A stretch of 64,000 nt of DNA from a bacterium (GTDB lineage: Bacteria; Patescibacteriota; Minisyncoccia; Phycocordibacterales; UBA9973), in contig JAKAKW010000011.1 in the NCBI GenBank assembly GCA_021824345.1, positions 9,074-73,073 of the forward strand, written 5' to 3'. The notes beneath the pieces are model-generated. The model ran no database searches. It had not been told where the DNA came from and saw only the letters and a program-made list of their open reading frames with translations. Below, one piece after another: positions 713 to 64,000 of this stretch (positions within the stretch are counted from its first letter, which is position 1; every line of letters begins with the position of its first letter). Made by a program: the position numbers and the translations under genes.

Positions 713-1540
713 ATGAAAGCTCTTATAACTATTACGTTTTTTATTTTCCTGATGGCTGAAGTATCAGCTCAGGAAAAGTGGGAAATAATCAATTATGGAA
801 TTCCCATAATTGATTATCCGAATTGTACGGTATCGTACAATTCTGACGGGTCAGTATCGTTTAAGACATATTTGACCACTCCTGATCCACCACTAGATCC
901 AAAGCTGGTGGTTTACTGGAAGTCCACTCTTACAGTTCCAACAACTGTAAGAAACTTAATCTCTGGCAACTTCTCCTTGTTGGGAGATAGTACATTATTG
1001 GGAGTCCAGATCGGGTTTGGAATATCCCATGACGGAGAAAATTGGGCGTTTGTTTTTGGAACAAGCAAAGGAGATACAATGTTCCCCGGACAAAGCACAT
1101 ACTTGACGTGGGATATGACTAATCTCACTAAATATGGCGTCTCGTTGGATAGTGTGAAGGCGATAACAATCATTATCCAGTTGTTGACATCAAAGCCCGA
1201 ATATACTTGGGCGACAGTCAAGATGTGGAATTTGGGATATTCTAGTGTGACTGGAATAAAAAATCCTCACAAGAGGGAGGATTTTCAACTGAGTCAGAAT
1301 TTTCCTAATCCATTCAATCCGACAACTACGATACAATACCAGTTGCCCAAAGCTGGTAATGTAACTATAAGGGTTTATGATATTTTGGGCAATGAAGTAG
1401 CAACACTTGTTAATGGAGAAAAGCCTGCCGGCGTTTACGAAACGAAATTCAACGCTAGCAATCTTTCTTCCGGTCTGTACATCTACCAGCTCAAGGCTGG
1501 AAATTTTATGCAGACAAAAAAGATGATGCTATTGAAATAA
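713..1540 (+). CDS. Secreted protein with a T9SS-type C-terminal sorting domain (Por_Secre_tail-like)
   Basis: N-terminal signal peptide MKALITITFFIFLMAEVSAQE. The C-terminal ~80 aa FQLSQNFPNPFNPTTTIQYQLPKAGNVTIRVYDILGNEVATLVNGEKPAGVYETKFNASNLSSGLYIYQLKAGNFMQTKKMMLLK is a near-textbook T9SS CTD (NPFNP..T.I.F.LP....V.L.VYD..GR.V..L........G.Y....D.S.L.SGVYFY.L.AG.F..TKKM.LLK). RBS aaaggag precedes the ATG. The gene and its flanks are markedly AT-richer than neighbours. Confidence 0.8.
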   Translation: MKALITITFFIFLMAEVSAQEKWEIINYGIPIIDYPNCTVSYNSDGSVSFKTYLTTPDPPLDPKLVVYWKSTLTVPTTVRNLISGNFSLLGDSTLLGVQIGFGISHDGENWAFVFGTSKGDTMFPGQSTYLTWDMTNLTKYGVSLDSVKAITIIIQLLTSKPEYTWATVKMWNLGYSSVTGIKNPHKREDFQLSQNFPNPFNPTTTIQYQLPKAGNVTIRVYDILGNEVATLVNGEKPAGVYETKFNASNLSSGLYIYQLKAGNFMQTKKMMLLK

Positions 1541-1646: not shown

Positions 1647-1771
1647 AACCGTTTTTTATAAATATGGGGTTTTCCACACGCAAATGGCGTATTTTTAATG
1701 CTTATAAAGGTATAATAAAGACTATTAATGGAAAAGAAAGACAAACAACCTGTCTAAATCAAACTATATTT

Positions 1772-40420: not shown

Positions 40421-40765
40421 TTAAAACGTTAATTTATAATACTTTTCATCCTTATGGCCGAATTTGTCTTCGGCTTGGATTACCATCATATTATACCCCG
40501 GAAGCAGGGCCACCGTATCTTCAAAATTACCCTTTTCATCTATAGGTATTTCCCGTCCGTCCAGGTACAGTTTCAAGGCATTTTCCGCGCTTCCTTTTAC
40601 TTTCATTATCCCGTCCCGGGTCTGGTCTCGTTCTGCGATGTTTACGTCTTGTATCTTCACCCCGAAGACCAAAGCCTTGGTCCGATAGAAAGCGTACAAT
40701 ACTATTAATAAAGAAAAGATAAAGAAAATGGAGATCTTCAGCAGTTTCTTCGCGTCAGTGGTCAT
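40421..40765 (-). CDS. Small hypothetical membrane-anchored protein between ftsK and recA
   Basis: 114 aa, N-terminal TM helix, 4-nt overlap with the ftsK stop; no recognisable domain. Confidence 0.5.
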
Positions 40766-46823: not shown

Positions 46824-46861
46824 TCTAGCTTTGGCATAGGTCCAGTACAATAAAAGTACGC

Positions 46862-46893
46862 AAAAAACCGCCTTCGGGCGGTTTTTTGTTTTT
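46862..46893 (+). terminator. Rho-independent terminator of the surface-protein gene
   Basis: aaaaaaccgcc ttcg ggcggttttttgtttttg. Confidence 0.8.
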
Positions 46894-46926
46894 GTGTTTC
46901 AACTGTTTTATTTGTATAATGTACGA

Positions 46927-48974: not shown

Positions 48975-49880
48975 ATGAAAAAAATTGTGATAACCGGAGG
49001 GGCAGGCTTTATCGGATCCCACATTGCGGATGCGCTGATTGAGAAAGGATATGAAGTCCATGTGGTGGACAATCTTTCCGCCGGGAAGAAAGAGAATGTG
49101 AATTCCAAAGCCATTTTGCACGTCGCGGATATACGCAATGGCATGGAAATGCTTAAGATATTTGAGGGAGCGGAATATGTTTTTCACGAAGCCGCTTTTC
49201 CGAGGGTGCAATATTCCATTGAAAATCCGGTGGAAACGCATGACATAAACGTAAACGGAACTTTGAATGTGCTGGAAGCGGCGCGGCTGTCCGGAGCAAA
49301 AAAAGTGATCTTCGCTTCCTCCTGCGCGGTATATGGCAATCCGACAAAATTACCAGTGGATGAAACTGGCGAGATTTCTCCCATGTCTCCCTATGCGGTG
49401 CACAAATGGATGGGGGAAAAGTATTGCCGAATGTATTCGGATCTGTACGGCCTTAAAACTGTCTGTCTCAGGTACTTTAACGTATACGGTCCGCGTATGG
49501 ATCCGGAGGGAGCTTATCCAATGGCGATCGGTAATTTCATCAAGATGCGTAAAATAGGCAAGCCTCTTCCCATAACCGGCGACGGAACGCAGACCAGAGA
49601 TTTTGTGAATGTAAAAGATGTGGTAAAGGCCAATCTTCTTGCGTTGGAATCAGACAAGATTGAAAAAGGAGAGGTGGTGAATATAGGCAGCGGCGTAAAA
49701 ACTTCCGTCAATCGCCTCGCCGAGCTTATCGGTGGACCTGTGGAGCGCATTTCTGCGCGACATGAACCGCACGATGTGCAATCTGATGTTTCATTGGCTG
49801 AAAAACTTTTAAGCTGGAAAGCGTCGGTAGTTATCGAGGAAGGACTTGCGGAATTAAAAAAAGAAAATAGTATAGCTTGA
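48975..49880 (+). CDS. NAD-dependent sugar-nucleotide epimerase (GalE-like extended SDR)
   Basis: ITGGAGFIGSH Rossmann motif, SS.AVYG, YAVHK (YxxxK). Confidence 0.8.
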   Translation: MKKIVITGGAGFIGSHIADALIEKGYEVHVVDNLSAGKKENVNSKAILHVADIRNGMEMLKIFEGAEYVFHEAAFPRVQYSIENPVETHDINVNGTLNVLEAARLSGAKKVIFASSCAVYGNPTKLPVDETGEISPMSPYAVHKWMGEKYCRMYSDLYGLKTVCLRYFNVYGPRMDPEGAYPMAIGNFIKMRKIGKPLPITGDGTQTRDFVNVKDVVKANLLALESDKIEKGEVVNIGSGVKTSVNRLAELIGGPVERISARHEPHDVQSDVSLAEKLLSWKASVVIEEGLAELKKENSIA

Positions 49881-49884
49881 GCGA

Positions 49885-50829
49885 CTACTGGCTCACAACG
49901 CTTTTGAAATACTCAATGGTTTTCTTTAGGCCTTCTTCCAGGGGAATCTTCGGTTCCCATTTTAATTTTTCTTTTGCGAGGGTTATATCCGGCTTCCGGC
50001 GGCGGGGGTCATCTTCAGGCAAGCCCTTGAAGACTATTTTTGATTTTGATTCTGACAAGTTTAATATCTTTTCTGCGATATCAAGCACGGTTCTCTCATC
50101 CGGATTGCCCAAGTTAACTGGTCCGGTAAAATCGCTGTTCATAAGCTTAACGAGTCCTAAGACCATATCTGAAACATAACAGAAAGATCGTGTTTGCCGT
50201 CCGTCGCCGTATACCGTCAAATCTTTTCCTTCAATTGCCTGCACAATAAAATTAGAAACCACTCTTCCGTCGTCTGCATTCATGCCGGGTCCGTAAGTGT
50301 TGAAGATTCTGGCAACACGTATCTTTGTTCCATACTTTCTCTGAAAATCAAAAAAAAGAGTCTCCGCTATTCTTTTTCCTTCGTCATAGCAGGATCTTAT
50401 GCCGATAGGGTTTACGTTTCCTTTATATTTTTCATTTTGCGGACTTTCCAAAGGGTCACCATAGATTTCGGATGTTGAGGATTGGAGAATTTTTGCATTA
50501 TTTGCTCTTGCCAGTTCCAGGACATTAAGCACGCCTATGGTGTTTGTCTGAATGGTGTGCACGGGATCAAGTTGGTAGTGTACGGGAGACGCGGGACAAG
50601 CAAGATTGTATATTTCGTCTATTTTCTGTTTTGGAAATTCTGCATTAATAATGTCTTTCTTTATGAATGTAAAGCGTTTTTCTTCCAAGAGGTGCCGGAG
50701 ATTTTCCATGCTTCCAGTCAATAAATTATCAACCCCGATGATTCTATAGTTTTCATTTTCAAGAAGATAACGGGAAAGATTGCTACCGATAAATCCTGCG
50801 CAACCCGTTATCATAATTGTTTTTGTCAT
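49885..50829 (-). CDS. UDP-glucuronate decarboxylase (UDP-xylose synthase)-like extended SDR
   Basis: IMITGCAGFIGSNL...VDNLLTGS...YGDPL.SPQ.E.Y.GNVNPIGIRSCYDEGKR... is characteristic of UXS/ArnA-decarboxylase enzymes. The track ORF begins at a TTG at 50868; the ATG at 50829 (MTKTIMITG) is the likely start. Confidence 0.75.
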   Translation of the reverse strand: MTKTIMITGCAGFIGSNLSRYLLENENYRIIGVDNLLTGSMENLRHLLEEKRFTFIKKDIINAEFPKQKIDEIYNLACPASPVHYQLDPVHTIQTNTIGVLNVLELARANNAKILQSSTSEIYGDPLESPQNEKYKGNVNPIGIRSCYDEGKRIAETLFFDFQRKYGTKIRVARIFNTYGPGMNADDGRVVSNFIVQAIEGKDLTVYGDGRQTRSFCYVSDMVLGLVKLMNSDFTGPVNLGNPDERTVLDIAEKILNLSESKSKIVFKGLPEDDPRRRKPDITLAKEKLKWEPKIPLEEGLKKTIEYFKSVVSQ

Positions 50830-50983
50830 GTCGGTCTTTATACTAACACCCGTTGTATTTAGTGGCAATATGTCTTAGTATAATTAAATTAATTGGGCGG
50901 AAAATGCAGGCGCGCAGAAAATGGTATAATATGAATGATCTAAAGGCAATTTTCCGAAAGTAAAAATAATAACATAAATCAAT

Positions 50984-52072
50984 ATGACAAAAAAATTTAA
51001 TAAAAGAAATCAAAAAGTAAACAAACGAGCGCTAATAATAGGCATAACGGGCCAAGACGGCTCGTATTTGGCTGAATTCCTGCTCTCTCGCGGATACGAG
51101 GTGCACGGCCTTATACGGCGCTCTTCCAGCTTCAACACGGGCCGTTTGGACGATATTTACCAGGATCCGCATGAAAGCCACCGCAGGCTCTATTTGCACT
51201 ATGGCGACCTAATTGATTCTCACAGCCTATTAAATATCATCAGCGAAAGCCAGCCGGACGAAATTTACAATCTCGGGGCGCAGAGCCATGTGCGCGTCAG
51301 CTTTGACATTCCGGAATATACCGCCGACGTGGATGCGCTGGGAACCACCCGCCTTTTGGATGCGGTGCGGGCGAGTAAACTGCCTGCAAAAATTTATCAA
51401 GCAGGATCCAGCGAGATGTTCGGGAAAGTATTGGAAACTCCGCAAAAAGAAAACACTCCATTCAACCCTCAAAGCCCCTATGCATGCGCCAAAGTATTCT
51501 CGCACTTCATTTGTAAAAATTACCGCGATTCATACGGAATGTTCATCGCCAACGGCATACTTTTCAATCATGAATCTCCCCGGCGGGGAAAAACTTTTGT
51601 GACCAAGAAAATAACCGAAGGCCTTGCGGACATAAGACTGGGGAAGAAAGACAGAATATATCTTGGGAATCTGGACGCCAAGCGCGATTGGGGATACGCG
51701 CCGGACTACGTGGAAGCAATGTGGCAGATGCTCCAGGAGGAAAAGCCGAATGATTACGTAATATCTACAGGGGAAACTCATTCAGTGCGCGAATTTGCCG
51801 AGGAAGCGGCACGTCTCATAGACATGGATCTGCAATGGAAGGGAAGCGGGCTTGAGGAGGAAGGCATAGACGCAAAGACGGGCCAAACAATCATCAGCAT
51901 TGATCCAAAGTATTACCGCCCTAGCGAGGTGGATGCCCTTCTCGGCGATAGTTCCAAGGCAAAGAAGAATCTTGGCTGGGAACCAAAAGTTAAATTCAAG
52001 GAGTTAGTGAAAATTATGATGGTAGGAGAGTTTGAAGAGAGAAAATTGGACAGTTCCGCATATTTGTCTTGA
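50984..52072 (+). CDS. gmd: GDP-mannose 4,6-dehydratase
   Basis: [34 protein letters not shown]..., GMD family. Confidence 0.9.
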
Positions 52073-53007
52073 TCATGGAAAAGAACTCCAAAATATACGT
52101 TGCCGGACATACCGGACTTGTCGGTTCGGCGATTGTACGAGAACTTAAAAAACAGGGATATGAGAATCTAATATTTAGGACTAGCAAAGAGCTAGACTTG
52201 CGCTCGCAATCAGACACCTTAGATTTTTTTAAGAAAGAACAGCCCGAGTATGTCTTTCTTGCCGCCGCCAAAGTTGGCGGTATAGGGGCAAATGATAAAT
52301 ATTCGGCGGATTTCATTAGGGACAACCTAGAGATAGAAGACAACGTAATTGACGGCAGCCACCAAGGGGGAGCAAAGAAACTGCTTTTTTTGGGCAGTTC
52401 ATGTATATATCCAAAGCTTGCTCCCCAGCCTTTAAAAGAAGAATACTTGCTCACCGGTCCGCTTGAAGAGACAAATAAAGCGTATGCGGTAGCAAAAATA
52501 GCCGGAATCACCATGTGCCAGATGTATGATAAACAGTATGGCACGAATTTTATTAGCGCCATGCCTACTAATTTGTATGGTCCCGGGGACAATTTTGATC
52601 TTGAAACTTCGCATGTTCTGCCCGCGATGATTCGGAAGTTTCATGAAGCAAAAGAAAGCGGGGCTAAAGAAGTGACACTGTGGGGCACGGGCAATCCTAA
52701 ACGAGAATTTCTGCATGTGGATGACTTGGCAAGCGCATGCGTTTTCCTTATGGAAAAGTACGATAGTCCGGAGATAATAAACGTGGGAACAGGGGAAGAT
52801 GTTTCAATAATGGAGCTGGCAGACAAAGTAAAAAAAATAATAGGGTGTTCCGGTAAAATTGTATGGGATTCAGACAAGCCCGACGGAACGCCGCGTAAGC
52901 TGCTGGATACTTCAAAAATCAATGCTCTCGGCTGGAGACCGTTAATTTCCATGGACGAAGGTATAAAATCTACATACGAGTGGTTTTTGGATAAATATGG
53001 AAAATAA
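52069..53007 (+). CDS. fcl: GDP-L-fucose synthase (GDP-4-keto-6-deoxymannose 3,5-epimerase/4-reductase)
   Basis: [15 protein letters not shown].., [14 protein letters not shown]. 4-nt overlap with gmd. Confidence 0.9.
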
Positions 53008-55015
53008 ATATGACATTGTAATAGTCGGCGCCGGAATTTCCGGCGCTACTCTGGCAGAGCGGTACGCTTCTTTAGGAAAAAAAGTGCTGGTGATAGAATC
53101 TCGGGACCATATCGGAGGAAACTGTTACGATTTCATTAATGAAGACGGAATCTTGGTGGCAAAATACGGGCCGCACTATTTTCATACGAATTATGAAGAC
53201 GTGTGGAGATATGTGAACCGTTTTTCTGAATGGGTCCCTTTTGAGGCTCGAGCCGTCAGTCATATTGACGGGAAAAAGGTTTCTTTACCCATAAACATAA
53301 AGACAATAAATCAGGTCTTTGGCTTGGAGATTAAAGAAAAAGAAGAAATGGAGAAGTGGGTAAAAGAAAATACTGAACCAAAAAGGCACCCCAGAAATTC
53401 TGAAGATGCGGCAATAGGCCGGGTAGGCAAAATCCTATATGAAAAGGTATTCAAGGAGTACACTCGAAAACAATGGGATAAGGATCCCAAGGAGCTTGAC
53501 CCTGAAGTGACAAACAGGATACCGATTCGCCTAAACGATGACGACAGGTATTTTACCGATGTCCATCAAGCCATACCAAGGGAAGGATACGCCAAGCTTT
53601 TTAAAAATATGTTAAGCAATGAAAATATAGAAGTTCGCCTCAATACCAAGTGGGAAGATGAAAAAGACAGGATTACTTACCGGGAGAAACTTTTTTTTAC
53701 GGGGAGGATTGATTCATATTTTAAAAAGAAATTCGGCCTGTTGGAATATCGCTCGCTTAAGTTTGAGTTTGAGACTTTTAACCGCGAATATTTTCAGGAA
53801 TACGTGCAGGAGAATTACCCGTCACTTAAAGTTCCCTTTACCCGAATTGTTGAATACAAGCATATGACCGGTCAGAAACATCCAAAAACGACCGTTTCCC
53901 GCGAATATCCTACTTGGGAGGGGGAGCCGTATTATCCGGTTCCTTCGACAAAAAACAGGAAGATATACGTAAAATATCAGCATGAGGCGAAAAGGTTGGA
54001 GAAGAAAAACATTTATTTTGTCGGCCGACTGGCCAATTACAAATACTTTAATATGGATCAGGCGTTCAAGAACGCCCTGGATTTGTTCTATAGGCTGGAA
54101 GGAAAGAAAGAACGCGGATCGGGGATGACGGTAAGACTCGCCGGGGGAATGGGAAACCAGATGTTTCAATACGCACTTGGCCGGAAGCTTTCAATAAAAA
54201 ACAACGTACCCTTGTATCTTGATTTGACGTTTTTAAATCACAGAGTCAAACTACCGGAGTTTTTGCGCCCTCATTTCGTTTTTCATGATTTGAAACTTGA
54301 TGTGTTTAATATCAAGGCTGACATCGCGAATCCCGCCCAAATTGGTTTTTGGAACCGTCCCTTTTTATCTGGAAAGATCATGATATTGATTGACGCGATT
54401 TTGCGCAAGCTCGCGCTCTTCCCAGGATGGGAAAAGTCATTTTCTTTTAACAAGAAAATCCTTGATTTAGGTCCTGGCACGTACCTGGAGGGATATTGGC
54501 AAAGCGAAAAATATTTCAAGGATATAAGCGAAACGCTTCGGAAAGATTTTTCCTTGAAAGCGCCCTTGTCCGGCAAGGCAGCGGAACTTTATAAAGAAAT
54601 AAGAAACTGCGCGTCCTTATGTATATTTGTGCGCAGGAAAGACATGGCAGATAAATCTTTTCACGGCACCGTGCCCATTGAGTATTACCGTGCCGGCATA
54701 GAATACATAAAGAAGCGTCAACCTATTGAAAAAATATACGTGTTTTCAGATGACAATGAATGGTGCCGGCAGAATCTGAAGTTTGAATATCCCACCTTGA
54801 TCGCCGAAAAGGAATGTTCCGGCAAGAAATGGGAAGGGCATCTTATTTTAATGAGTGCGGGCCGGAATTTCATAATCGCCAACAGTACTTTTTCCTGGTG
54901 GTCGGCATGGCTTTCAGATAACCCGAACAAGATAGTCGTTGCCCCTAAACAATGGTTTGGGAACAATAGGCTGGACGATTCCGATTTAATACCCGAAAGC
55001 TGGGTAAGATTATAA
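52997..55015 (+). CDS. Fusion ORF: UDP-galactopyranose mutase (N-terminal ~375 aa) plus GT11 alpha-1,2-fucosyltransferase (C-terminal ~295 aa)
   Basis: N-terminal [18 protein letters not shown]...[15 protein letters not shown] (Glf FAD-binding) through ...[12 protein letters not shown]. The C-terminal part begins at the internal Met of [18 protein letters not shown] (GT11 motif I) and contains VRRKD, YVFSDD and [12 protein letters not shown] motifs. Continuous frame with no stop. 11-nt overlap with fcl. Confidence 0.75.
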
Positions 55016-55090
55016 ATCTTTCATTTTAAGGATATTTATCAATTCTGATTTGTTGTTTTTATTCTTAATATAGCTTAGTATTATTTACAT

Positions 55091-55930
55091 ATGGCAAAAA
55101 AGAAACTCCGCATAGGATTTATCGGACAAGGATATATCGGGAAGAATTATGCGGATGATTTTGAACGCAGAGGATATAAAGTTACCCGATATTCAAAAGA
55201 GCGTCCTTATATCAAAAACAAAGAAGAAATCAAAGAGTGCGACGTAATATTCATAGCGGTTCCGACCCCTACGCGCCACGGATCCTTTTATGACGGAGTA
55301 TTGAGAGAAGTTATTCCTCTGGCCGGCCGAAATAAGGTTGTGGTCATCAAGTCCACTGTGAGCCCAGGCCTCACCCGCATCTTGCAAAATAAATTCAAAG
55401 ACCGCCTCATTATTCACAGTCCTGAATTTTTGAGCGAGGATACCGCCGCCAATGATGCAAGCAATCCTTTTTTTAATATTGTCGGTATAAAAAAGAATTC
55501 CCGAAAGCATAAAAAGGCGGCCTCGCTCCTTCTAACCATACTTCCTCCTTCTCCGTTTTTCTCCATAGTTTCATACGAAGAAGCCGAGCTCATAAAATAT
55601 ATTCATAATTCTATGGCCTTTACCCAAATTGTTTTTTTTAATCTTATGTATGATTTGGCCCTAAAATTTGGCGCCGATTGGGCCAATATCAACAGAGCCA
55701 TAAAAGCGGATCCGTTAATACCCAACAGGTACTCCGAACCTGTGCATAAGAGCGGAAGGGGTGCGGGCGGGCATTGTTTCATAAAGGATTTTGCAGTCAT
55801 ATCCCAGGCCTATGAAAAAGCAGTAAAGGATCCAAAAGGAATTGATGTATTGAAAAGCCTGGAAATAAAAAACATAGATCTTCTTAGAAAGAGCAAGAAG
55901 GATCTTGAATTGCTTCGTGAGATTTATTAA
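55091..55930 (+). CDS. UDP-glucose/GDP-mannose dehydrogenase-family protein, short (279 aa; C-terminal UDP-binding domain missing)
   Basis: IGFIGQGYIG (NAD-binding), VIFIAVPTPT, VVIKSTVSPG, IIHSPEFLSED, GAGGHCFIKD (catalytic Cys), as in Ugd; the ORF ends about 50 aa after the catalytic Cys. Confidence 0.55.
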   Translation: MAKKKLRIGFIGQGYIGKNYADDFERRGYKVTRYSKERPYIKNKEEIKECDVIFIAVPTPTRHGSFYDGVLREVIPLAGRNKVVVIKSTVSPGLTRILQNKFKDRLIIHSPEFLSEDTAANDASNPFFNIVGIKKNSRKHKKAASLLLTILPPSPFFSIVSYEEAELIKYIHNSMAFTQIVFFNLMYDLALKFGADWANINRAIKADPLIPNRYSEPVHKSGRGAGGHCFIKDFAVISQAYEKAVKDPKGIDVLKSLEIKNIDLLRKSKKDLELLREIY

Positions 55931-55939
55931 ATTTCCTAT

Positions 55940-56860
55940 ATGAAAAAAAACGCGGTTTCAGAAAAAATTTCGGCGGTTGTGGTAACGCATAATAGAAAAG
56001 AACTCTTAAGGAATTGTTTGAATGGAATTTTGCGGCAAACTGTCCCTGTCAACCATATCTTTATAATTGACAACGATTCTAAAGATGGTACGGAGGATAT
56101 GATCCGGGACAAATTTGGAGATAATCAGCTTGTAGAATATAGAAATCTCGGTAAAAATACCGGAAGCGCCGGTGGCTTTCATGAGGGTGTGAAGATGGCC
56201 TACGAGCGTGGATCGGAATGGATCTGGCTTATGGATGATGACGTAACACCTCGCCCTGATTGTCTGGAAAAAATGAAAAGCTACGGGCATATATCAAAAT
56301 GTATCAATGCAAACAAAGTTGATCCATCAAACAAGGAATATGAGTTCATGTTTGAAGTTATATTTGATCCTTCAATATGCAGAATGACTTTTATGAATAA
56401 TATCTCCTTTAAAAACGGCAAAGATTTTGCTTTTGTCAATGTCGGATGTTTTGAGGGAATGCTTATTCACCGAGATATTGTTGCCCAAATAGGTTTTCCT
56501 GACAAGCGATTTTTCATTTATAGCGATGATACCACTTATGGATTTATCGCTTCTCTGTATACAAATGTTATTTTTGTGAGAGATGCGTATTTTGATAAAA
56601 AAGTTTCCTTTAAAAATACTGCCACGCCGATTTTTTCATATTACGCGATTCGAAACCAATTCTTACTTAAGGAATACCTAAAGAAATACGGCATTTATAA
56701 TGCGCGCCTGTTTTATCTTGGAATAGCATTATTCGCCGGTCTGGCTGCCACCAAGCAGGCGGTTAGAAGCAGAGACATCAAGATACCATGGTATGTTCTT
56801 CGGGGATTATTTGACGGCTTAAGGGGAAAGTTTTATCAGATTGGGACACACAGAAAATGA
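55940..56860 (+). CDS. Family 2 glycosyltransferase
   Basis: ISAVVVTHNRKELL...IFIIDNDSKDGT (DxD) ...WIWLMDDD, GT-A fold GT2 motifs. Confidence 0.8.
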   Translation: MKKNAVSEKISAVVVTHNRKELLRNCLNGILRQTVPVNHIFIIDNDSKDGTEDMIRDKFGDNQLVEYRNLGKNTGSAGGFHEGVKMAYERGSEWIWLMDDDVTPRPDCLEKMKSYGHISKCINANKVDPSNKEYEFMFEVIFDPSICRMTFMNNISFKNGKDFAFVNVGCFEGMLIHRDIVAQIGFPDKRFFIYSDDTTYGFIASLYTNVIFVRDAYFDKKVSFKNTATPIFSYYAIRNQFLLKEYLKKYGIYNARLFYLGIALFAGLAATKQAVRSRDIKIPWYVLRGLFDGLRGKFYQIGTHRK

Positions 56861-59019
56861 ATCTTTCCTGGGAAAAGATAAACAAGGGACTTTTACTTCT
56901 TGGACTTGTTGCCCTGCTATATAGGGAAGGGAACTTTGCCGGCACGTTTATACCAAAGCCCTTTGAAATAATATTTGTGATCTTGTGTGTTTCCACAGCT
57001 CTTTTCATGTTAAAGGGCTCAAAAATGAAGGATTTTTTCGCATCAATACCGAGAAAAATATTAATTGCCGTATGTGTAATGTTGGGGTCAGTATTTCTGG
57101 GATGGATTTCGGCTTCATTGTCCGGCATGAAGCCCAATTTCAATATGATTTTGGAGCTAGGAACTTTTTTAATCGGAATTGGCATTTTTCTTTTGATTCT
57201 TTTTTATGCTCAGGGGAACAAAGCGTATGCGCGATATTGCTTATATGCCATGCTGGTTCCGGCGATATATGCTTTTTTTATTTTCCTGTATCCCGGCACA
57301 TATCTTGGCATAAATTTAAAAATACATTTCCTGGGTTTTACGATAAATCCGAATACCATTTCAAAGATCTTATTGATCCCGGCAATGTTTTTTGTTTCTT
57401 ATTCATTATTCGAGCATCGGAACAAATGGATAAAGGCTCTGTATATTTTCTTGTCCGCTTCCATGGTTTCTCTAATATTCTGGACGGGGTCAAGAGGGTC
57501 TTTGGTAAGCCTTATAATAGGAATGGGTTTCATTTTAGTCGTATACATATTTCATGAATTCACCTGGAAAAAAATCTTCTTCGGTTCCGGAGTAATCTTA
57601 GCTATACTTATTTTGGGTCAGGGGATGTTGCCCATAGATCGACAGGAGGCATTCGTGCACAGAGTGGTCCTCACTTTTATTCATCAGCCGAATATAGTTT
57701 CCACCTTGCGAGAATATACTACTGGGGTAGTTATATATCAGAATAAAGAGGAAGAATTGGAAGGAACGATTGACATAAAACTCGTTGAGCCTAGGCTCAT
57801 TGCGTGGCCGTTCTATTTGAAATATGTGCTTCTTCATCCCCTTGGCATAGGTCCGGATACGCACAAAGATTTCGGACTTGTAGATAAAAAAGGCAATCCA
57901 ATAAATTCAGGTCCTCATAACACCTATCTTGAAATATGGCTGTGGGGAGGCATACTAGGCATCCTAAGTTTCATATACTTATTGTATTGCGCTTTTAAAA
58001 ACTTAACGGAAAGGATCAAATCTTCCTTCAGCCTGACAAATATTGCGCTACTGGCGATTCTTTTTGCTTTATCCGTATCTATTTTCTTTGATGACAGTCT
58101 TTCATTTTATTGGTTTTTCATAATCTTGGCGTTTGCCTTAATTGAAAAGGAGACTATTGCGGTCAGCATGCATATGGGAAAAGAAGAGCTAGATATTTTT
58201 GCAAAGCTGAGTTGGAACTTCAAAACGGTTTTTGATGTTGGTTCAAGAGACGATATTGATTATTTTAAGATAAAAAACGACTGCGAGTATCATTTGTTCG
58301 AACCTAATACGGAGGCTATTGCCTCAATAAAACGGAAAATTTCGAATTTAGGCGAGCACAATATAATTCTCAATGAATTCGGACTATCAGACGCCGACAA
58401 AGACAACTGCGTTTATTACAAGAACGTTCAGTCATTTATCCCGCATTGGAGTTTAGCCTCTTTTGACACTGGCGAACGTTTTTCTCTGCGTAAAATGGAT
58501 GATTATGTGGAAAATCACGGCATATCCTTCATTGATTTTCTGAAAATAGACGTTGAAGGAATGGATTATCAAGTAATACTCGGGGGCATAAATACTATTA
58601 AGCGGAACAACAAAGTATCTTTTATCCAGCTGGAATGTTCCGGTGGCAGCAGGCAATATATCGAGCTTCTGGATAATTTTGATTTTTACTTAATTATGGA
58701 TCCTAGTCTGCTGAAAGTGATCAATACTTTAAACAGAACAGGCATCGACTTCAACAAGCAATTGATCAAGATGGATGAGGATGTAATAATTTTTTTGGAT
58801 AAGACTATGGCTGAAACTGGCGCCGCGGCTTGTATTTTAGGAGTGAATAAAAACATTGATTTTTCTTTAATAATTCAAGAAAGAAAACTGGCATACAGCA
58901 TAGTTTCCGTGAACAAATCGTACAGTGGAATGGCTCTGGATTATTTTAAGATCTTATACGGTATCAAAAGGCGCTTGCGGAAAATAAGGAAGACGGTCAA
59001 AAATTTCCTCTTTACTTGA
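56857..59019 (+). CDS. Fusion ORF: Wzy_C (O-antigen ligase/polymerase-like) membrane domain plus C-terminal FkbM-family methyltransferase domain
   Basis: About 430 aa with 10 or more TM helices and the Wzy_C region (GSRGSLVSL...SGPHNTYLEIWLWGGILG). From about residue 440, FkbM-type MTase motifs (FDVGSRDDIDYF...FEPN......KIDVEGMDYQVILG). No stop between the two parts. Confidence 0.7.
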   Translation: MNLSWEKINKGLLLLGLVALLYREGNFAGTFIPKPFEIIFVILCVSTALFMLKGSKMKDFFASIPRKILIAVCVMLGSVFLGWISASLSGMKPNFNMILELGTFLIGIGIFLLILFYAQGNKAYARYCLYAMLVPAIYAFFIFLYPGTYLGINLKIHFLGFTINPNTISKILLIPAMFFVSYSLFEHRNKWIKALYIFLSASMVSLIFWTGSRGSLVSLIIGMGFILVVYIFHEFTWKKIFFGSGVILAILILGQGMLPIDRQEAFVHRVVLTFIHQPNIVSTLREYTTGVVIYQNKEEELEGTIDIKLVEPRLIAWPFYLKYVLLHPLGIGPDTHKDFGLVDKKGNPINSGPHNTYLEIWLWGGILGILSFIYLLYCAFKNLTERIKSSFSLTNIALLAILFALSVSIFFDDSLSFYWFFIILAFALIEKETIAVSMHMGKEELDIFAKLSWNFKTVFDVGSRDDIDYFKIKNDCEYHLFEPNTEAIASIKRKISNLGEHNIILNEFGLSDADKDNCVYYKNVQSFIPHWSLASFDTGERFSLRKMDDYVENHGISFIDFLKIDVEGMDYQVILGGINTIKRNNKVSFIQLECSGGSRQYIELLDNFDFYLIMDPSLLKVINTLNRTGIDFNKQLIKMDEDVIIFLDKTMAETGAAACILGVNKNIDFSLIIQERKLAYSIVSVNKSYSGMALDYFKILYGIKRRLRKIRKTVKNFLFT

Positions 59020-60931
59020 AAAGCTTCCGGTATTTATCCTTGTTTTTCAAAACGTAGTCCGGCAAATCTGATTCGTCGGTCCAGTATTTGAATTTTCGGC
59101 CTCGATAATCCACGTTTTTATTCACTCTATCTTCTAAAGTTTCCAGCCAGTCTGCATAGGCTGGGTGCCGCCATTCCGCCATTTTTCTTTTTGCTCCTTC
59201 CACTCCTCCCATAAATCCGAAATGCCATCCGCCATCGTTAACCTCGGCATATCTAGTCTTTTTTCTGGTACGCAGATCATTCAGGCAATTTTCTTTTATA
59301 GTTTTGTATTGAACGGCAATTGTCCCCGTCCAACCGTTTACTTCGTTACAACGATTGTTTAAATAGTAATAGTATGCAAGCTGCTTTGGGCGGATTATCT
59401 CGCTTTTTGAAAAATCGGTAAGCCCTTTTAATTTTATTGGGTTCCATATTTCATCCAAGTCGGACACAAATACCACGTCCGTGTCATTCAGATTAAGCTT
59501 CGCAAGTGCTTTTTTCGCGCTTTCTTTCTGATAGAATTCCCGTACCCAGTAATGCTCTCCGGCGCCTACGTTGCTGTTATTCTTTGCCATTTCAAACAAG
59601 GAAGTGTCTTTAGGAAAATCATTCACCACGTAATAGGTTATCTTGTCTTTCCATTTTGCGAACCGCTCCTTGTGTTTCTCGTATTGCAGTTCATGGGGCA
59701 TTCCGGAAAAAGTTTCCGTGCTCTCCACGATCACGAATTGGTCCACGTAATCGTTCAATATATTAAGCCTGATTTCCAGGAGATCAAGTTCATTGAGCAG
59801 ATAAAACAGGTCGTATACCTTGATCCTTTTCTTATATTCGTCCAGTTCTATTTTTGATACCCAGGCCTTTTGCCTGACTTTTTCTTTTTTCAGTTCAAGG
59901 GAAGTTCTTACGAAGTTTTTTGCGCTCTGCATCTTGTAAATCACCGCCCTGGCGGCCCTTCTGGCGCTTTTCGGAAGCAATTGTTTGGCTTTTGCCTTCA
60001 TGCCTTTTGGGGCCGGCATGAAAACGGGAGCCTGATTTTGATAATAATCTTTATGTCTTTCCATATACGCCTTCAGTTCCTTTAAGCATGTATCATAATC
60101 GTTGAGATTCCCTTCCCGGTCCAGGTAATTCCACCCTTTCGTAATGTTGTATCCCAGGCTCCAGTATCCGTCCGAAACGTTGTGCCTGCCCCAATATTTC
60201 GGTGCAATGCAGAATTTTAGACTCTCGCTAAGCCAGGCGGGAAACCAAGCGAAGCTGGAATTGGACATGATGAGATAATGGGCGTTTTTAACCACGACAT
60301 AATCCTTTGCAATACTGAAATGAAATACCCCGAAATCCGGGAAGAATTTTTTGGCTGTTGAAACATCTTCGGTAATTACAATGAATCGGAAATTCGGATT
60401 GATTTTTCGCATATGCCTTACGGCATCTTCCCAATATTCTTTTCTCAAAAAAAATTCCGGATGCCTGACATACTCTCCGCCCCGGAAATTTATGACGCAG
60501 GTGTTGTCATCGGCGTAGTCATAGCATTCATATTCTTCCTTCACCTGGAGCCATTTTTTTATTTCATCCTTTCGGTGAAAAATATATTGCTCGTCTTGCA
60601 TTAATCCGTCTATTTTTGTGCCATCTTTAATGTTTACCAGATTTTTGTCATATGTTCTGATGTCTGCTCCGGAAAATGGGTGGATGATTTTTCTTTCAGT
60701 GTAATAATACTGCATGCCTTCGGGCAAGGTTTTGGGCGGTCCGCCCTCCGGGCCTTTTCCGCCTGTCACCTTACATCCGAAATCAAGATTCATAAAATTT
60801 CCCGCCTTAAATTTTTCAGGGGATTTGATACCAAAATCATATCCATTATCTAAGGAAAAAACTCTCGTTGCCACATAGCAGGCAAGCTGGTTGCCCAGTC
60901 CTTGGCCGTTGTATAACTCTGTAATTATCAT
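59012..60931 (-). CDS. Two-domain glycosyltransferase: N-terminal GT11-like domain plus C-terminal GT17-like (MGAT3-type) domain
   Basis: N-terminal GQGLGNQLACYV, FRGGEYV, MSNSSFAWFPAWL mirror GT11 motifs I/II/IV. C-terminal FYLLNELDLLEIRLNILNDYVDQFVIVESTETFSG..., TDVVFVSDLDEIW, GGWHFGFMGG, PDYVLKNKDKY parallel Glyco_transf_17 blocks (NHEFDLLDVRF..VVDAFVVCESNFT, DDVFIIDDADEIP, GWHCSWCF, PKYLLKNYDRF, recalled from memory). Confidence 0.7.
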   Translation of the reverse strand: MIITELYNGQGLGNQLACYVATRVFSLDNGYDFGIKSPEKFKAGNFMNLDFGCKVTGGKGPEGGPPKTLPEGMQYYYTERKIIHPFSGADIRTYDKNLVNIKDGTKIDGLMQDEQYIFHRKDEIKKWLQVKEEYECYDYADDNTCVINFRGGEYVRHPEFFLRKEYWEDAVRHMRKINPNFRFIVITEDVSTAKKFFPDFGVFHFSIAKDYVVVKNAHYLIMSNSSFAWFPAWLSESLKFCIAPKYWGRHNVSDGYWSLGYNITKGWNYLDREGNLNDYDTCLKELKAYMERHKDYYQNQAPVFMPAPKGMKAKAKQLLPKSARRAARAVIYKMQSAKNFVRTSLELKKEKVRQKAWVSKIELDEYKKRIKVYDLFYLLNELDLLEIRLNILNDYVDQFVIVESTETFSGMPHELQYEKHKERFAKWKDKITYYVVNDFPKDTSLFEMAKNNSNVGAGEHYWVREFYQKESAKKALAKLNLNDTDVVFVSDLDEIWNPIKLKGLTDFSKSEIIRPKQLAYYYYLNNRCNEVNGWTGTIAVQYKTIKENCLNDLRTRKKTRYAEVNDGGWHFGFMGGVEGAKRKMAEWRHPAYADWLETLEDRVNKNVDYRGRKFKYWTDESDLPDYVLKNKDKYRKLFK

Positions 60932-61554
60932 AAGTAATCCTTCGGGATATAAACTCCTGCCTCTTTAACGTAATCGTCTACATTATTGGGCACCACATCC
61001 GGGCGCGTTCTTTTTGCCAACTCAAACATAGTCTTGCGGCCGGTTCCCAAATACTCCAGCGAGCTGGTTTTTCTGTCCCATTCTTTTACTCTTTTGGCCA
61101 GAAGTTCGGCAATCACATCCACATAATCTCCTTGGGTATATTGATCAATGTAAGCCATAGGGAAAGGGAAAGGATTCGGTTTGAACAACGTGCGCAAAAT
61201 AAGGTGCCGGGGATGCGCCTCTACTATCTCCTCGGCCAGCTTTTTACTTAAAGCGTATACGCTGAACGGATATTTTGCAGACTCGCTGGAAACGTATATG
61301 AAAGGCGTGTTTTTGTAGTGGCTTATCAGATTAAAAGTGCCATAAACGTTTACCATAAAACATTTTTCTTTATCTTCATGCTCGGCCCTGCGCACGTCCG
61401 TGTACGCGCCCGCATGCACAATCAGATCATATTCCGCTTCCGGTATTTTCCCGGTAAAGTCAAAGTCTTCTGTTCCGACATAGTGCCCCGCAAGATGTTT
61501 TTGCAGTTCTTTGCCCAGCCGGCCGGTTCCTCCCGTGATTAATATTTTATTCAT
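60928..61554 (-). CDS. NAD(P)-binding short epimerase/reductase-like protein (RmlD-like)
   Basis: ILITGGTGRLG Rossmann start and a YALSK (YxxxK) motif; 208 aa. Confidence 0.55.
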   Translation of the reverse strand: MNKILITGGTGRLGKELQKHLAGHYVGTEDFDFTGKIPEAEYDLIVHAGAYTDVRRAEHEDKEKCFMVNVYGTFNLISHYKNTPFIYVSSESAKYPFSVYALSKKLAEEIVEAHPRHLILRTLFKPNPFPFPMAYIDQYTQGDYVDVIAELLAKRVKEWDRKTSSLEYLGTGRKTMFELAKRTRPDVVPNNVDDYVKEAGVYIPKDYL

Positions 61555-62233
61555 GATATTTTTTCTTCATATATTTAATTTCTTTCCTTTTTTCCCAAAA
61601 GCCTAAATGTTTGGTTGTCTGGTGCTTTCCAAGCCCGATGATAACGTTTATGTTGTTTAAAACGGTCGGCTCTCCATATTTTTCATAAAGTCTTTGGTAA
61701 TAATCGCAATCCAGCACCCAGGTCAAATTTTCATTAAACCATAAAGGATTTTCATTTGTAATGGCAAGCACCGAAGGGCTCCCTATGGTATTTTCCCCCA
61801 TTTTTAACTTATTATTGAAAGATGGGAAATGCGGTTTCATTATTTTGCCATTTTTTTCACTGTGCGCGCAGGCGGTAACCAACCAATGGCCCTTGAAATT
61901 ATCCACAACCTCCTTTAAAGAATTTTCTCCGCTCAAAAAATCGTCCATATATAATATTTTTATCAATTTTCCGGAGGCGGCCCTTATTGCTTCGTTGGTG
62001 TTTGCCGATATTCCTTTTCTCGGATTCTTGGAGTATTTAATATTTAACGAAGCATATTCCGGCCTCTCGCAGAAATTCTTTATGTCATCATTATCGGAAT
62101 TATCGGAAACTACTACTTCAAAATCTTTGAATGTCTGCTTTTTAAGCATATCAAAGCTCCTGGAGAGCAATTCAATGGCTCTACCATGCGCCTCAAAAGT
62201 CGGTATGCATACGCTTACGGCCGTTGTTCCCAT
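61547..62233 (-). CDS. Family 2 glycosyltransferase
   Basis: VSVCIPTFEAHGRAIELL...FEVVVSDNSDNDD...ILYMDDF: GT2 DxD pattern. Confidence 0.8.
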   Translation of the reverse strand: MGTTAVSVCIPTFEAHGRAIELLSRSFDMLKKQTFKDFEVVVSDNSDNDDIKNFCERPEYASLNIKYSKNPRKGISANTNEAIRAASGKLIKILYMDDFLSGENSLKEVVDNFKGHWLVTACAHSEKNGKIMKPHFPSFNNKLKMGENTIGSPSVLAITNENPLWFNENLTWVLDCDYYQRLYEKYGEPTVLNNINVIIGLGKHQTTKHLGFWEKRKEIKYMKKKYHE

Positions 62234-62291
62234 GAGAAAATATTATCATGTATTTACCTTATATGCATTCGTAGGATATAATTGACGGGTT

Positions 62292-63182
62292 ATGGTCCAA
62301 AAAACTTTACGGGAAAGAATTTCCTACGGCATAAGGTTTAGACTACAGAGCATGTTTTTGAGGTGCTTCGCCATTTTTAATTATTTAAGGTCTAATGGCA
62401 ATGTGTATGATGAACCGTCGGTGTGCGCTTTCTATCAATGCTACAAGAGGCCCAAATGTGTCATTACTGTCCTTGATTCATTCAGGAAGGTATATCCCTC
62501 AGGCACAGTTCATTTGTTTTGCGATCAGGGGGACGATATGAGCCATATAGCCGCGCATTTCAATTGCAAGTATGAGTACATGACCAACAGATCCGGAAAC
62601 GGCACCACGCTTTTTTTCTTATCCAAAGAGCGGTTGATGTCTTATCTGGATAGATTGCTGTATGCCGCGCAAAATTCAAAAGAGGATTTTATGATGATTC
62701 TGGAAGACGACTCTTTGGTTCTTGGGAAAATAAGGAAGCTGAAATTCGATTGGAATTGCATCAAATCAAACCACCATTACAGCGGGGGAGGGGTAACTTC
62801 AATATTAAGGATCCGAAACAAATCCATCCCTTGGTATGTTCGGAATATGTACTTTGCCGGCTGGGGAGGAGTGATGCTCAATAGGGCTTTTTTTGTTGAG
62901 CACTTTTCTGACAAGGAAAAGCTTTCGGATGCGATTGACATATTATCTCCGCAGATACAGATGCAGTGGGAGGGAGCGTTGCCTATGGACGCCATCGTAA
63001 CCGCTCTCATTATTTATTTCGGCGGTACGGTTGGGTGGTATCCGGGTTTTGCCGAAACCCAATATTGGAGATATAAGCTCAGACCTCTCTTTGGAAAGAT
63101 TGACGTTGTGCACAATGCAAAAAGCTTTTACAATTCTCCGATGTCAATAGAAGAAGAAAAAATATTTTATGGCAATCAATGA
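62292..63182 (+). CDS. Hypothetical protein (possible nucleotide-diphospho-sugar transferase)
   Basis: 296-aa ORF in a glycosyltransferase neighbourhood with a DDS motif (ILEDDS); no confident family assignment. Confidence 0.45.
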   Translation: MVQKTLRERISYGIRFRLQSMFLRCFAIFNYLRSNGNVYDEPSVCAFYQCYKRPKCVITVLDSFRKVYPSGTVHLFCDQGDDMSHIAAHFNCKYEYMTNRSGNGTTLFFLSKERLMSYLDRLLYAAQNSKEDFMMILEDDSLVLGKIRKLKFDWNCIKSNHHYSGGGVTSILRIRNKSIPWYVRNMYFAGWGGVMLNRAFFVEHFSDKEKLSDAIDILSPQIQMQWEGALPMDAIVTALIIYFGGTVGWYPGFAETQYWRYKLRPLFGKIDVVHNAKSFYNSPMSIEEEKIFYGNQ

Positions 63183-63850
63183 TAGTCTGTGGTATATTCT
63201 CCATTATTCTTTAAGTCAATCCTTATACGTGCTGCTGCTCTTAAAATACTATATGGAATTTCCTGTTTTTTCACATCTCCTTTTTTCGAATAGTTTAGCA
63301 ATCTTTCCGCTTCTGCCACAAGACGCTTTCTCGTATCTAGATCATCCATGTCTAATGGTTCGTCAGCTGGGCAGTTTATGTATTTGATCTCCGGGTGTTG
63401 TTCTTGAAAAGTGGCCCAAGCCCTGCGCTGGTGAATAGGGCGGGAAACTATGATAATCTGCTTTGGATCTATGCCGTTTTTCCTTATGAAAGGAATAGCT
63501 TCTCTCGCCTCTACTAGAGTGTTATCCGAAATGCTTTCTGTCAAGATGGCCTCAGGAGGCACTTTCAGCTTTTCTAATACTTCTTTGTACTTCTCATTTT
63601 CAGGGACCTCCCAGTCTTTGTTGCTGAATGATCCTTTTGTGGCAATAGCGACTACATGCTCGGAATACCCCTTCTTGTATAGTTCAGCCCCCTTCTCCGC
63701 TGGACCGACGGTAGATCCGCCAAATAGGAAGATTGCATCTGATCTTTCAGGTTTATCTTCTACTTTTAAATACTCAAAGAATGTCTGCATCGCCTTTTTC
63801 AGCTCCTCTTTTTTTTCGCTTTCATTTTTGTTGCTTATTTCTTCATTCAT
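63176..63850 (-). CDS. DUF218 (YdcF/ElyC/SanA-like) protein
   Basis: ...SDAIFLFGGSTVGPAEKGAELYKKGYSEHVVAIATKG...IIIVSRPIHQRRA... matches the DUF218 pattern. Confidence 0.65.
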   Translation of the reverse strand: MNEEISNKNESEKKEELKKAMQTFFEYLKVEDKPERSDAIFLFGGSTVGPAEKGAELYKKGYSEHVVAIATKGSFSNKDWEVPENEKYKEVLEKLKVPPEAILTESISDNTLVEAREAIPFIRKNGIDPKQIIIVSRPIHQRRAWATFQEQHPEIKYINCPADEPLDMDDLDTRKRLVAEAERLLNYSKKGDVKKQEIPYSILRAAARIRIDLKNNGEYTTDYH

Positions 63851-64000
63851 ATTATTTTTGATTTATCAATATTTTTGAAGATCTTTATATTGTAATAATA
63901 ATCGTTTGAAAAATCTCCATATTCATCTATATGTTTGTATATATCCCTGACGATATCCTCTATGCCGTATCTTGGGGCATATTCAAGGACTGATTCGGCT
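63851..64000 (-). CDS. Partial CDS (C-terminal 49 aa; stop TGA overlaps the DUF218 start as ATGA), unknown function
   Basis: Reverse-strand frame ...AESVLEYAPRYGIEDIVRDIYKHIDEYGDFSNDYYYNIKIFKNIDKSKII* runs in from the window edge. Confidence 0.35.

Follow-up and report, generated by a model that had tools for sequence, protein, structure and literature searches.

The locus described here lies in a 64,000-nucleotide stretch of contig JAKAKW010000011.1 (assembly GCA_021824345.1), hereafter called the window, and carries genes for the synthesis of a bacterial surface glycan. A first-pass annotation, made from the letters alone, had marked positions 48975-63850 as a 15-kb surface-glycan island. 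Pfam and NCBIfam profile searches were run on all 13 open reading frames (ORFs) between these positions, and the analysis showed that they form only the central part of a cluster of ~27 kb and ~26 genes, which starts at 46894 and goes ~10 kb past the window end. We are fairly confident that this cluster is of the Wzx/Wzy type, that it occupies an ancestral and conserved site on one side of ftsK, that its content changes by module swapping and that its low GC content is not foreign. The features of the cluster within the window and of its left flank are as follows, with protein lengths in amino acids (aa), GT for glycosyltransferase and SDR for short-chain dehydrogenase/reductase.

44658..46823, plus strand: PG_binding_1 wall protein, anchored by signal/transmembrane segment, 721 aa (Pfam); flanks the cluster, GC 0.536
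46860..46889, both strands: hairpin resembling a bidirectional intrinsic terminator, with a near-perfect stem of 12-13 bp depending on strand, 6 G-C pairs and T-runs on each side
46894..48951, plus strand: Wzy_C membrane protein with C-terminal TPR, 685 aa (Pfam Wzy_C 56 bits, TPR_2); first gene of the cluster
48975..49880, plus strand: SDR301, GalE-like UDP-hexose/HexNAc 4-epimerase, 301 aa (Pfam, NCBIfam, PDB search)
49885..50868, minus strand: UXS, UDP-glucuronate decarboxylase (UDP-xylose synthase), 327 aa (PDB search)
50984..52072, plus strand: Gmd, GDP-mannose 4,6-dehydratase (NCBIfam TIGR01472)
52069..53007, plus strand: Fcl, GDP-L-fucose synthase (NCBIfam NF047922)
52997..55015, plus strand: Glf::GT11 fusion, 672 aa (Pfam GLF 240.8 bits and GT11 84.1 bits; NCBIfam)
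55091..55930, plus strand: mini-Ugd, 279 aa (Pfam N-terminal and central domains)
55940..56860, plus strand: GT2_306, a GT2 of 306 aa (Pfam; NCBIfam)
56857..59019, plus strand: Wzy_C::FkbM fusion, 720 aa (Pfam and NCBIfam)
59012..60931, minus strand: GT11-like::GT17 two-module glycosyltransferase, 639 aa (Pfam, predicted fold)
60928..61554, minus strand: short RmlD-like SDR, 208 aa (Pfam and NCBIfam, N-terminal half of RmlD only)
61547..62233, minus strand: GT2_228, a GT2 of 228 aa (Pfam), with an orthologue of 72-73% identity in the related loci L086-L088
62292..63182, plus strand: predicted GT-A-fold glycosyltransferase (GT31/Fringe-like), 296 aa (predicted fold)
63176..63850, minus strand: DUF218 protein, 224 aa (Pfam, 58.8 bits)
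63847..64000, minus strand: 3' end of SDR322 (322 aa), which leaves the window

The precursor genes for fucose, xylose and galactofuranose (Galf) named in the first-pass annotation (Gmd, Fcl, UXS, Glf and a GalE-like gene) were all recovered by Pfam, NCBIfam and PDB searches, and the two GT2, two GT11-type and one GT17-type transferases, the Wzy_C protein with its methyltransferase (FkbM) and the DUF218 protein were also found as claimed. The proposed Ugd-like and RmlD-like genes are indeed present, but encode only 279 aa without a UDP-binding domain and 208 aa, respectively. Similarly, the transferases exist but are not all separate genes, as three proteins are fusions (Glf::GT11, GT11-like::GT17 and Wzy_C::FkbM), and one transferase that had been left unassigned could be placed by its predicted fold, namely the GT-A-type protein of 296 aa.

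Past the window end, SDR322 is followed by SDR238 (short RmlD-like), an RmlC-like protein, RmlB, RmlC, RmlA, GT2_275, SDR303, a DUF3431 protein, Wzx and Bac_transf. RmlA, RmlB and RmlC (465, 478 and 217 bits) all score above their NCBIfam cutoffs. The Wzx candidate is a 487-aa protein of the Polysacc_synt/MurJ family (Pfam), which the NCBIfam Wzx models match weakly and far below their cutoffs. Bac_transf, an initiating phosphoglycosyl transferase of 430 aa according to Pfam, stands at the far end, ~9-10 kb past the window, and a like arrangement was found in the related loci L088-L090. In total, two membrane proteins with a Wzy_C domain belong to the cluster (Pfam). The 46 kb upstream constitute a housekeeping block encoding TIM, PGK, RecJ, RNase H, ComEC, SHMT, ArgRS, IleRS, MetRS, a class II aminoacyl-tRNA synthetase (aaRS), TatD, S6, SSB, EF-P, RecA and FtsK.

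The left border of the cluster is sharp, with GC falling from 0.536 in the wall-protein gene (44658-46823) to 0.438 in the first cluster gene (46894-48951). The hairpin at 46860-46889, located at the junction with the wall-protein gene, marks the transcriptional as well as the compositional border. On the right side, the GC content per gene stays at 0.35-0.46 up to Bac_transf, where it returns to 0.487. The genes are tightly packed as had been noted, with measured overlaps of 4, 11, 4, 8, 4, 8, 7 and 4 nucleotides and a coding density of 98.6%. Promoter-like sites are not in excess in this stretch (45 versus 40 +/- 5.8 by shuffling), and scans of the window for tRNAs and Rfam families gave no match.

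The stretch 48975-63850 has a GC content of 0.416 as compared to 0.484 for the remaining window. Per gene, the locus is lower in GC (0.417 versus 0.487) and in GC at third codon positions (0.446 versus 0.550; Mann-Whitney p = 4e-7), which bears out the lower GC described before. The tetranucleotide profile told less: its mononucleotide-normalised correlation with the housekeeping block is r 0.86-0.91 for the locus and 0.92-0.95 within the block. Thus, of the two compositional checks proposed, GC deviates significantly, but the tetranucleotide shift is mild, and the giant surface-protein gene at 1664-7399 deviates more.

Several nucleotide-sugar enzymes could be assigned by family membership. 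Gmd scored 545.6 bits against an NCBIfam equivalog cutoff of 415 (TIGR01472), and Fcl 482.4 bits against a cutoff of 500 (NF047922), which is marginally under, with an E-value of 6e-145 over the full length. For UXS, residues 15-323 matched human UXS1 (PDB code 2b69) with 354.7 bits and an E-value of 5.5e-105, the next family reaching 135 bits. The Glf domain (residues 4-363) obtained 367.6 bits, above the NCBIfam equivalog cutoff of 303.75. The GalE-like SDR scored 174.8 bits with the NCBIfam GalE model and thus less than the cutoff of 262.3; its top PDB match was the UDP-glucose 4-epimerase 4zrm (199.7 bits), and it may supply UDP-galactose to Glf. The short RmlD-like SDR has a 70% identical orthologue of 209 aa in L086-L088 and one of 213 aa in L092, in each case at the same position. 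Such SDRs of 208-213 aa are the immediate upstream partners of GT11-like::GT17 genes, here with a 4-nucleotide overlap, and 8 of 29 metagenome loci have them as well.

The mini-Ugd protein resembles UDP-glucose 6-dehydrogenases (UGDH/Ugd/TuaD) in having the NAD-binding and central domains with the catalytic Cys in a GGxCFxKD motif; an alignment to 4a7p showed that the catalytic motif GGHCFIKD, the conserved Lys and Asn and the motif PEFL[RS]E are kept. Unlike these enzymes, it lacks the entire C-terminal UDP-sugar-binding domain as well as ~35 residues of the N-terminal domain, and it scored 124.6 bits, below the NCBIfam subfamily cutoff of 189.8, covering model positions 71-282 of 413. We found 106 representatives at E<=1e-30 among 1.84 billion sequences searched. 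Most of the best 150 matches listed are 260-300 aa long and aligned end to end, and they therefore constitute a real family of ~280 aa rather than a truncation. In longer members, the fusion partner is GT4 (four cases), GT2, a GalE-like SDR, an ATP-grasp ligase or an APS kinase. In one member of 651 aa (P0415), an intein with a LAGLIDADG endonuclease begins at about residue 247, just past the match to the central domain (residues 169-245); the position of this intein hints that the site is functionally essential. The fusion of mini-Ugd to an SDR (P0323) was considered as a link between mini-Ugd and UXS and was rejected, as its SDR half is nearer to the GalE-like SDR301 (39%) than to UXS (30%).

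A widely distributed transferase of the locus is the 639-aa GT11-like::GT17 protein. Its N-terminal module has a fucosyltransferase fold and matched GT11 (PF01531, cutoff 23.9) with 27.0 bits, its C-terminal module is of the GT-A fold and GT17 (MGAT3) type (PF04724, above the gathering score), and a helix of ~50 residues lies between them. A PDB sequence search with this protein returned nothing at E<=1; therefore, structure prediction and a fold search were used, and these gave GT-A structural matches of the C-terminal module to chondroitin and heparosan synthases. As 593 homologues of this architecture were found at E<=1e-5 and the architecture is common in Patescibacteria, the idea of rare glycosyltransferase combinations in the locus is not supported. 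Some family members carry FkbM inserts. Two catalytic modules joined by a long helical connector are also the hallmark of bifunctional polymerising transferases such as WbbM, the chondroitin polymerase K4CP, the heparosan synthase PmHS2 and CHSY3, a likeness drawn from sequence and predicted fold; in contrast to these enzymes, the GT11-like::GT17 protein combines a GT-B fucosyltransferase-fold module with a GT17-type GT-A module.

The other GT11 module, residues 495-670 of the Glf fusion, reached 84.1 bits. Motifs of the GGxGNQ type were found in the GT11 modules as '[11 protein letters not shown]' and 'GQGLGNQL'. The top named relative of GT2_306 is GlfT1 (NF050113), with 85.1 bits far under the cutoff of 330, and a 57% identical orthologue adjoins Glf in the related loci L089/L090; judged from sequence, GT2_306 is a better candidate for the Galf transferase than GT11. 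A role of the GT11 module as Galf transferase, suggested by its fusion to Glf, was rejected, because an orthologous stand-alone GT11 follows Gmd and Fcl in relatives without Glf and the module has kept its own start Met. Of 29 metagenome loci, 12 have GT2_228 no more than 10 kb away from a GT11-like::GT17 gene. The 296-aa protein shows an N-terminal helix and a conserved EDD motif (E138, D139, D140), with D139 present in at least 90% of sequences, and its predicted structure classifies it as a putative GT31/Fringe-like glycosyltransferase of the GT-A fold.

DUF3431 (PF11913), represented by the off-window gene at L003:2707-3477 and by proteins such as P0015, P0104 and P0123, is fused to Glf in some Patescibacteria and sits between the halves of GT11-like::GT17 in dozens of proteins. 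Judging from these contexts, it is probably a glycosyltransferase module and possibly Galf-related. For GT11-like::GT17, DUF3431, the 296-aa transferase and mini-Ugd, no characterised member was found in Pfam, NCBIfam, PDB or the searched literature, and we consider all four new at family level, DUF3431 as a probable glycosyltransferase.

Two of the fusions could be traced to neighbouring genes. In Glf::GT11, Glf comprises residues 1 to ~370 and the fucosyltransferase-type GT11 residues ~377-672; at the junction, the GT11 start '[17 protein letters not shown]' has kept its own Met (Met377) after an 8-residue linker, GKKERGSG. This is the sole fusion of its kind among the top 120 Glf homologues, and the identical protein was present on 13 contigs. 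Stand-alone GT11 orthologues with 45-72% identity lie beside Fcl in relatives, and for residues ~375-672 of the fusion, seven ftsK-anchored loci, shorter loci included, have a stand-alone GT11 as orthologue. The GT11 and Glf genes of relatives are neighbours, but separate and in reverse order. In Wzy_C::FkbM, the Wzy_C part extends from residue 1 to ~431 and the FkbM methyltransferase from ~437 to 720, with an internal Met left at the junction. Adjacent but separate genes for Wzy_C (432-435 aa) and FkbM (245-283 aa) are found in L086-L088, and the two halves match those of L086/L087 at 60-63% and 69-70% identity, respectively; a metagenome scan with the Wzy_C::FkbM protein yielded no confirmed relative. 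According to these comparisons, Glf::GT11 is a species-level fusion of neighbouring genes and Wzy_C::FkbM the join of two neighbours. As species-specific fusions, both are mildly new.

The genomic site was compared in relatives. FtsK (40762-43014, minus strand) has 65-78% identical proteins, found in metagenome-assembled genomes only. Most of these matches are labelled Paceibacterota, Nomurabacteria, Patescibacteria, Minisyncoccia or Parcubacteria; many automated third-party annotation (TPA) assemblies carry the label 'uncultured Candidatus Saccharibacteria' and others are unclassified. These labels point to a bacterium of the Candidate Phyla Radiation (CPR) of Paceibacteria type ("Nomurabacteria"-like) as the host. 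The ftsK-anchored loci of 80 species were compared by tblastn, and 45 of them extended 6 kb or more to the relevant side. The order S6-SSB-EF-P-(RecA)-FtsK-hyp347 proved nearly universal among ftsK-anchored loci. Glycan genes lie beside ftsK-hyp347-(PG_binding protein) in 18 of the 45 relatives and also in L091, a locus next to FtsK in which Wzy_C and TPR are separate genes. A Wzy_C homologue was found in 14 of the 45 and Gmd and/or Fcl, at 66-77% identity, in 6, and a homologue of the PG_binding wall protein occupies the same position in 27.

The closest cluster is that of L086-L088, anchored by a GT11-like::GT17 protein of 80% identity, in which the order is kept from Gmd to Bac_transf with 60-87% amino acid identity. 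It reads Gmd, Fcl, GT11, Wzy_C, FkbM, further genes, GT11-like::GT17, RmlD-like (209 aa), DegT and GT2, followed by RmlB, RmlC, RmlA, GT2, SDR, DUF3431, Wzx and Bac_transf. Compared with it, three modules of the present cluster that lie between Fcl/GT11 and Wzy_C (Glf, mini-Ugd and GT2_306) are gains, and so is a block of the GT-A protein, DUF218, SDR322, SDR238 and the RmlC-like protein where DegT stands. The loci L089/L090, L091 and L092 share the core and differ in other modules. Near the GT11-like::GT17 genes of 29 long metagenome loci, Glf, GT2_306 and UXS were found once each and mini-Ugd in none.

With respect to GC content, the glycan side is lower than the ftsK side in 13 of 15 relatives with glycan genes there, at host GC contents of 0.34-0.52, and relatives without glycan matches show no such bias. 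The GC dip thus appears to be a standing property of the locus and not the scar of a recent import. Furthermore, the best named matches of Glf, the 639-aa and the 296-aa transferase, the three genes searched in a large database, all belong to Patescibacteria, being labelled Paceibacterota, Nomurabacteria, Minisyncoccota, Parcubacteria or Levyibacteriota. Pfam scans of the locus and of neighbouring ORFs turned up neither an integrase nor a transposase family, with flanking repeats outside the search and the right border outside the sequence read. We favour the view that the cluster is ancestral, long-resident and typical of its lineage, and that it would evolve by swapping of modules among related clusters and by fusion of neighbouring genes.

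The proposed pathway is as follows. GDP-L-fucose would be formed by Gmd and Fcl, UDP-galactofuranose by the GalE-like epimerase and Glf, and UDP-xylose by UXS, for which mini-Ugd may provide UDP-glucuronic acid, the weakest and an uncertain link of this branch. The off-window RmlA, RmlB and RmlC, together with the short RmlD-like SDRs and the RmlC-like protein, would yield dTDP-L-rhamnose and a second 6-deoxyhexose. Bac_transf presumably begins the chain on polyprenyl phosphate, and 7-8 transferase modules (three GT2, GT11, GT11-like::GT17, the 296-aa GT-A protein and DUF3431) would lengthen it. The FkbM methyltransferase would O-methylate the unit and Wzx would flip it; one Wzy_C protein would then polymerise it and the other, in either assignment of the pair, would move the glycan to its acceptor. 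The Wzy_C-TPR protein is a putative polymerase or a ligase resembling O-oligosaccharyltransferases (O-OTases), functions which the Wzy_C domain does not separate.

Wzx/Wzy-dependent systems include the E. coli O86/O128 clusters, where gmd and fcl are accompanied by a GT11 fucosyltransferase, and the pneumococcal cps loci. The present cluster agrees with such O-antigen, capsule and wall-polysaccharide clusters in uniting sugar genes, several transferases, Wzx, a putative polymerase of the Wzy_C family and Bac_transf in one tight block, and in its fixed chromosomal site, mosaic variable content and GC content under the genome mean. It differs from them in the host, a monoderm-like CPR bacterium without lipopolysaccharide, in the presence of two Wzy_C paralogues with TPR and FkbM domains, in that no Wzz/PCP or LCP gene was seen in the cluster, and in its uncharacterised transferase families (GT11-like::GT17, DUF3431 and the GT31-like GT-A protein).

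Some of our results weigh against this interpretation. Recognisable glycan genes were detected within 10 kb of ftsK in only 18 of the 45 relatives, which makes the site a variable one. All characterised UGDHs bind UDP through a domain that is missing from mini-Ugd, so that the UDP-xylose branch may not be self-sufficient, and the sugar specificities of all transferases are predictions from their families. A Wzz/PCP chain-length regulator was not present among the Pfam families of the genes from 46894 to Bac_transf, nor was an LCP-type ligase seen within the 27 kb examined. Finally, the compositional reference for this genome comes from within the 74 kb of sequence read, and the right flank was read as far as Bac_transf.

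The first-pass annotation had instead described a horizontally exchanged island, and a recently acquired foreign glycan locus with an unusual gene complement would indeed account for a GC content 7 points under the rest of the window, for the slightly lower tetranucleotide correlation, for the rarity of the modules Glf, GT2_306, mini-Ugd and UXS, none of which occurs in more than 1 of 29 related clusters, and for the module insertions which set the content apart from that of the nearest relative. We regard such an acquisition as very unlikely and, for the locus as a whole, as largely refuted. The synteny comparison proposed to define island borders revealed homologous glycan genes at ftsK in L091 and 18 of the 45 relatives as well as the syntenic cluster L086-L088; best matches outside the host lineage were expected, but the three genes checked all led to Patescibacteria; the GC dip scales with host GC in 13 of 15 relatives; and the window contains no tRNA and the scanned locus and neighbouring ORFs no integrase or transposase family. 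The conserved site and order, the best matches within the phylum and the recurrent GC dip therefore argue against a recent import. Mosaicism at the level of modules, exchanged between related clusters, fits part of the earlier idea. Equally, a gene content unusually rich for a reduced genome is not supported, since Parcubacterial genomes rich in glycosyltransferases and with full rml sets have been published (PMC5220378); our literature search on DUF3431, CPR glycan loci and GT17/GT11 in Parcubacteria found nothing specific beyond that report. Decay offers another account of the short genes: the Ugd-like and RmlD-like proteins are much shorter than the canonical enzymes and score under the NCBIfam cutoffs, as expected for remnants in a partly degenerate locus with a non-functional xylose branch. 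This appears extremely unlikely, as mini-Ugd belongs to a conserved family (106 representatives at E<=1e-30) with intact catalytic residues and functional-looking fusions, the 208-aa SDR has 70% identical counterparts of conserved length and position, and identical proteins were obtained from independent assemblies.

A different destination of the glycan is compatible with the conserved Wzx/Wzy-type cluster that we prefer. The locus might serve mainly protein O-glycosylation, with the Wzy_C-TPR protein acting as a PglL- or WsaB-like O-OTase on the Ser/Thr-rich PG_binding_1 wall protein or on pilins. The Wzy_C family includes the characterised O-OTases PglL, PilO and WsaB, and in Geobacillus the S-layer glycan is methyl-capped, both of which speak for this possibility, as does the FkbM methyltransferase encoded here. 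The 721-aa wall protein, encoded directly upstream, consists of 31% Ser and Thr (Thr 16.8%, Ser 14.1%) and contains three tandem Cys-containing repeats 'LPAGCTS(A/T)(S/T)GYS.TTG..C' followed by ~500 aa rich in Thr, Ser and Ala; in relatives, the slot before Wzy_C holds a PG_binding homologue or a protein of ~1,196 aa. As there are two Wzy_C paralogues, one would be free to act as ligase. On the other hand, a strong terminator lies between the wall-protein gene and the cluster, and Wzy_C alone does not tell polymerase, ligase and O-OTase apart. The wall protein is thus a candidate acceptor guessed from its position, and a main role in protein O-glycosylation seems to us possible, though doubtful. 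The slg cluster of Geobacillus stearothermophilus NRS 2004/3a, which contains the O-OTase WsaB (Wzy_C family), the multi-domain methyl-/rhamnosyltransferase WsaE and an ABC transporter, offers a parallel: rml genes, multi-module transferases (some GT11-like::GT17 relatives have an embedded FkbM), a Wzy_C protein and a neighbouring Ser/Thr-rich surface protein are found here too, a likeness in gene content. The two systems differ in the exporter, Wzx here and an ABC transporter there, and in the acceptor, which here is a positional guess.

Some observations were made elsewhere in the window. RecA (38214-40415, minus strand, 733 aa) contains an intein with a LAGLIDADG_2 homing endonuclease at residues ~232-592; the same intein-bearing RecA is also encoded in L020 (81% identity), the only relative with a full-length match. 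An IleRS-like class I tRNA synthetase of 1205 aa (22399-26016, plus strand) has a His_Phos_1 (PGM-like) domain at residues 539-699, after tRNA-synt_1, which ends at residue 534; a histidine-phosphatase domain is unusual for an aaRS. At 713-1540 (plus strand), a 275-aa protein with a Por_Secre_tail sorting domain of the type IX secretion system is encoded, followed at 1664-7399 (plus strand) by a CARDB/fn3 surface protein of 1911 aa, whose gene has a GC content of 0.62 at second codon positions and the most deviant tetranucleotide signature of the window (r 0.62-0.70), beyond that of the glycan locus.

As a genome feature, the locus is an ordinary polysaccharide cluster and does not testify to unusual horizontal transfer. 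CPR bacteria (Patescibacteria) are ultrasmall and mostly episymbiotic, and to our knowledge their surface chemistry is almost unknown. With an assumed genome size of ~1 Mb, this organism invests ~3% of its genome in a complex glycan of the fucose/Galf/rhamnose type, an investment whose position and core content are conserved throughout the Paceibacteria. Tentatively, and with the odds rather against it, GT11-like::GT17 could define a Patescibacteria-wide core for a phylum-typical fucose/6-deoxyhexose surface glycan, together with the optional DUF3431 or FkbM at its connecting helix, the always-adjacent short RmlD-like SDR, GT2_228 and Wzy_C(-TPR). In this speculative picture, the glycan, possibly carried by Ser/Thr-rich wall proteins, would mediate the attachment of the episymbionts to their hosts, and mini-Ugd would represent a new class of sugar 6-dehydrogenases working without a UDP-binding domain. 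The GT11-like::GT17 family, DUF3431, the GT31-like 296-aa transferase and mini-Ugd provide enzyme candidates for work on the surface glycans of this phylum.

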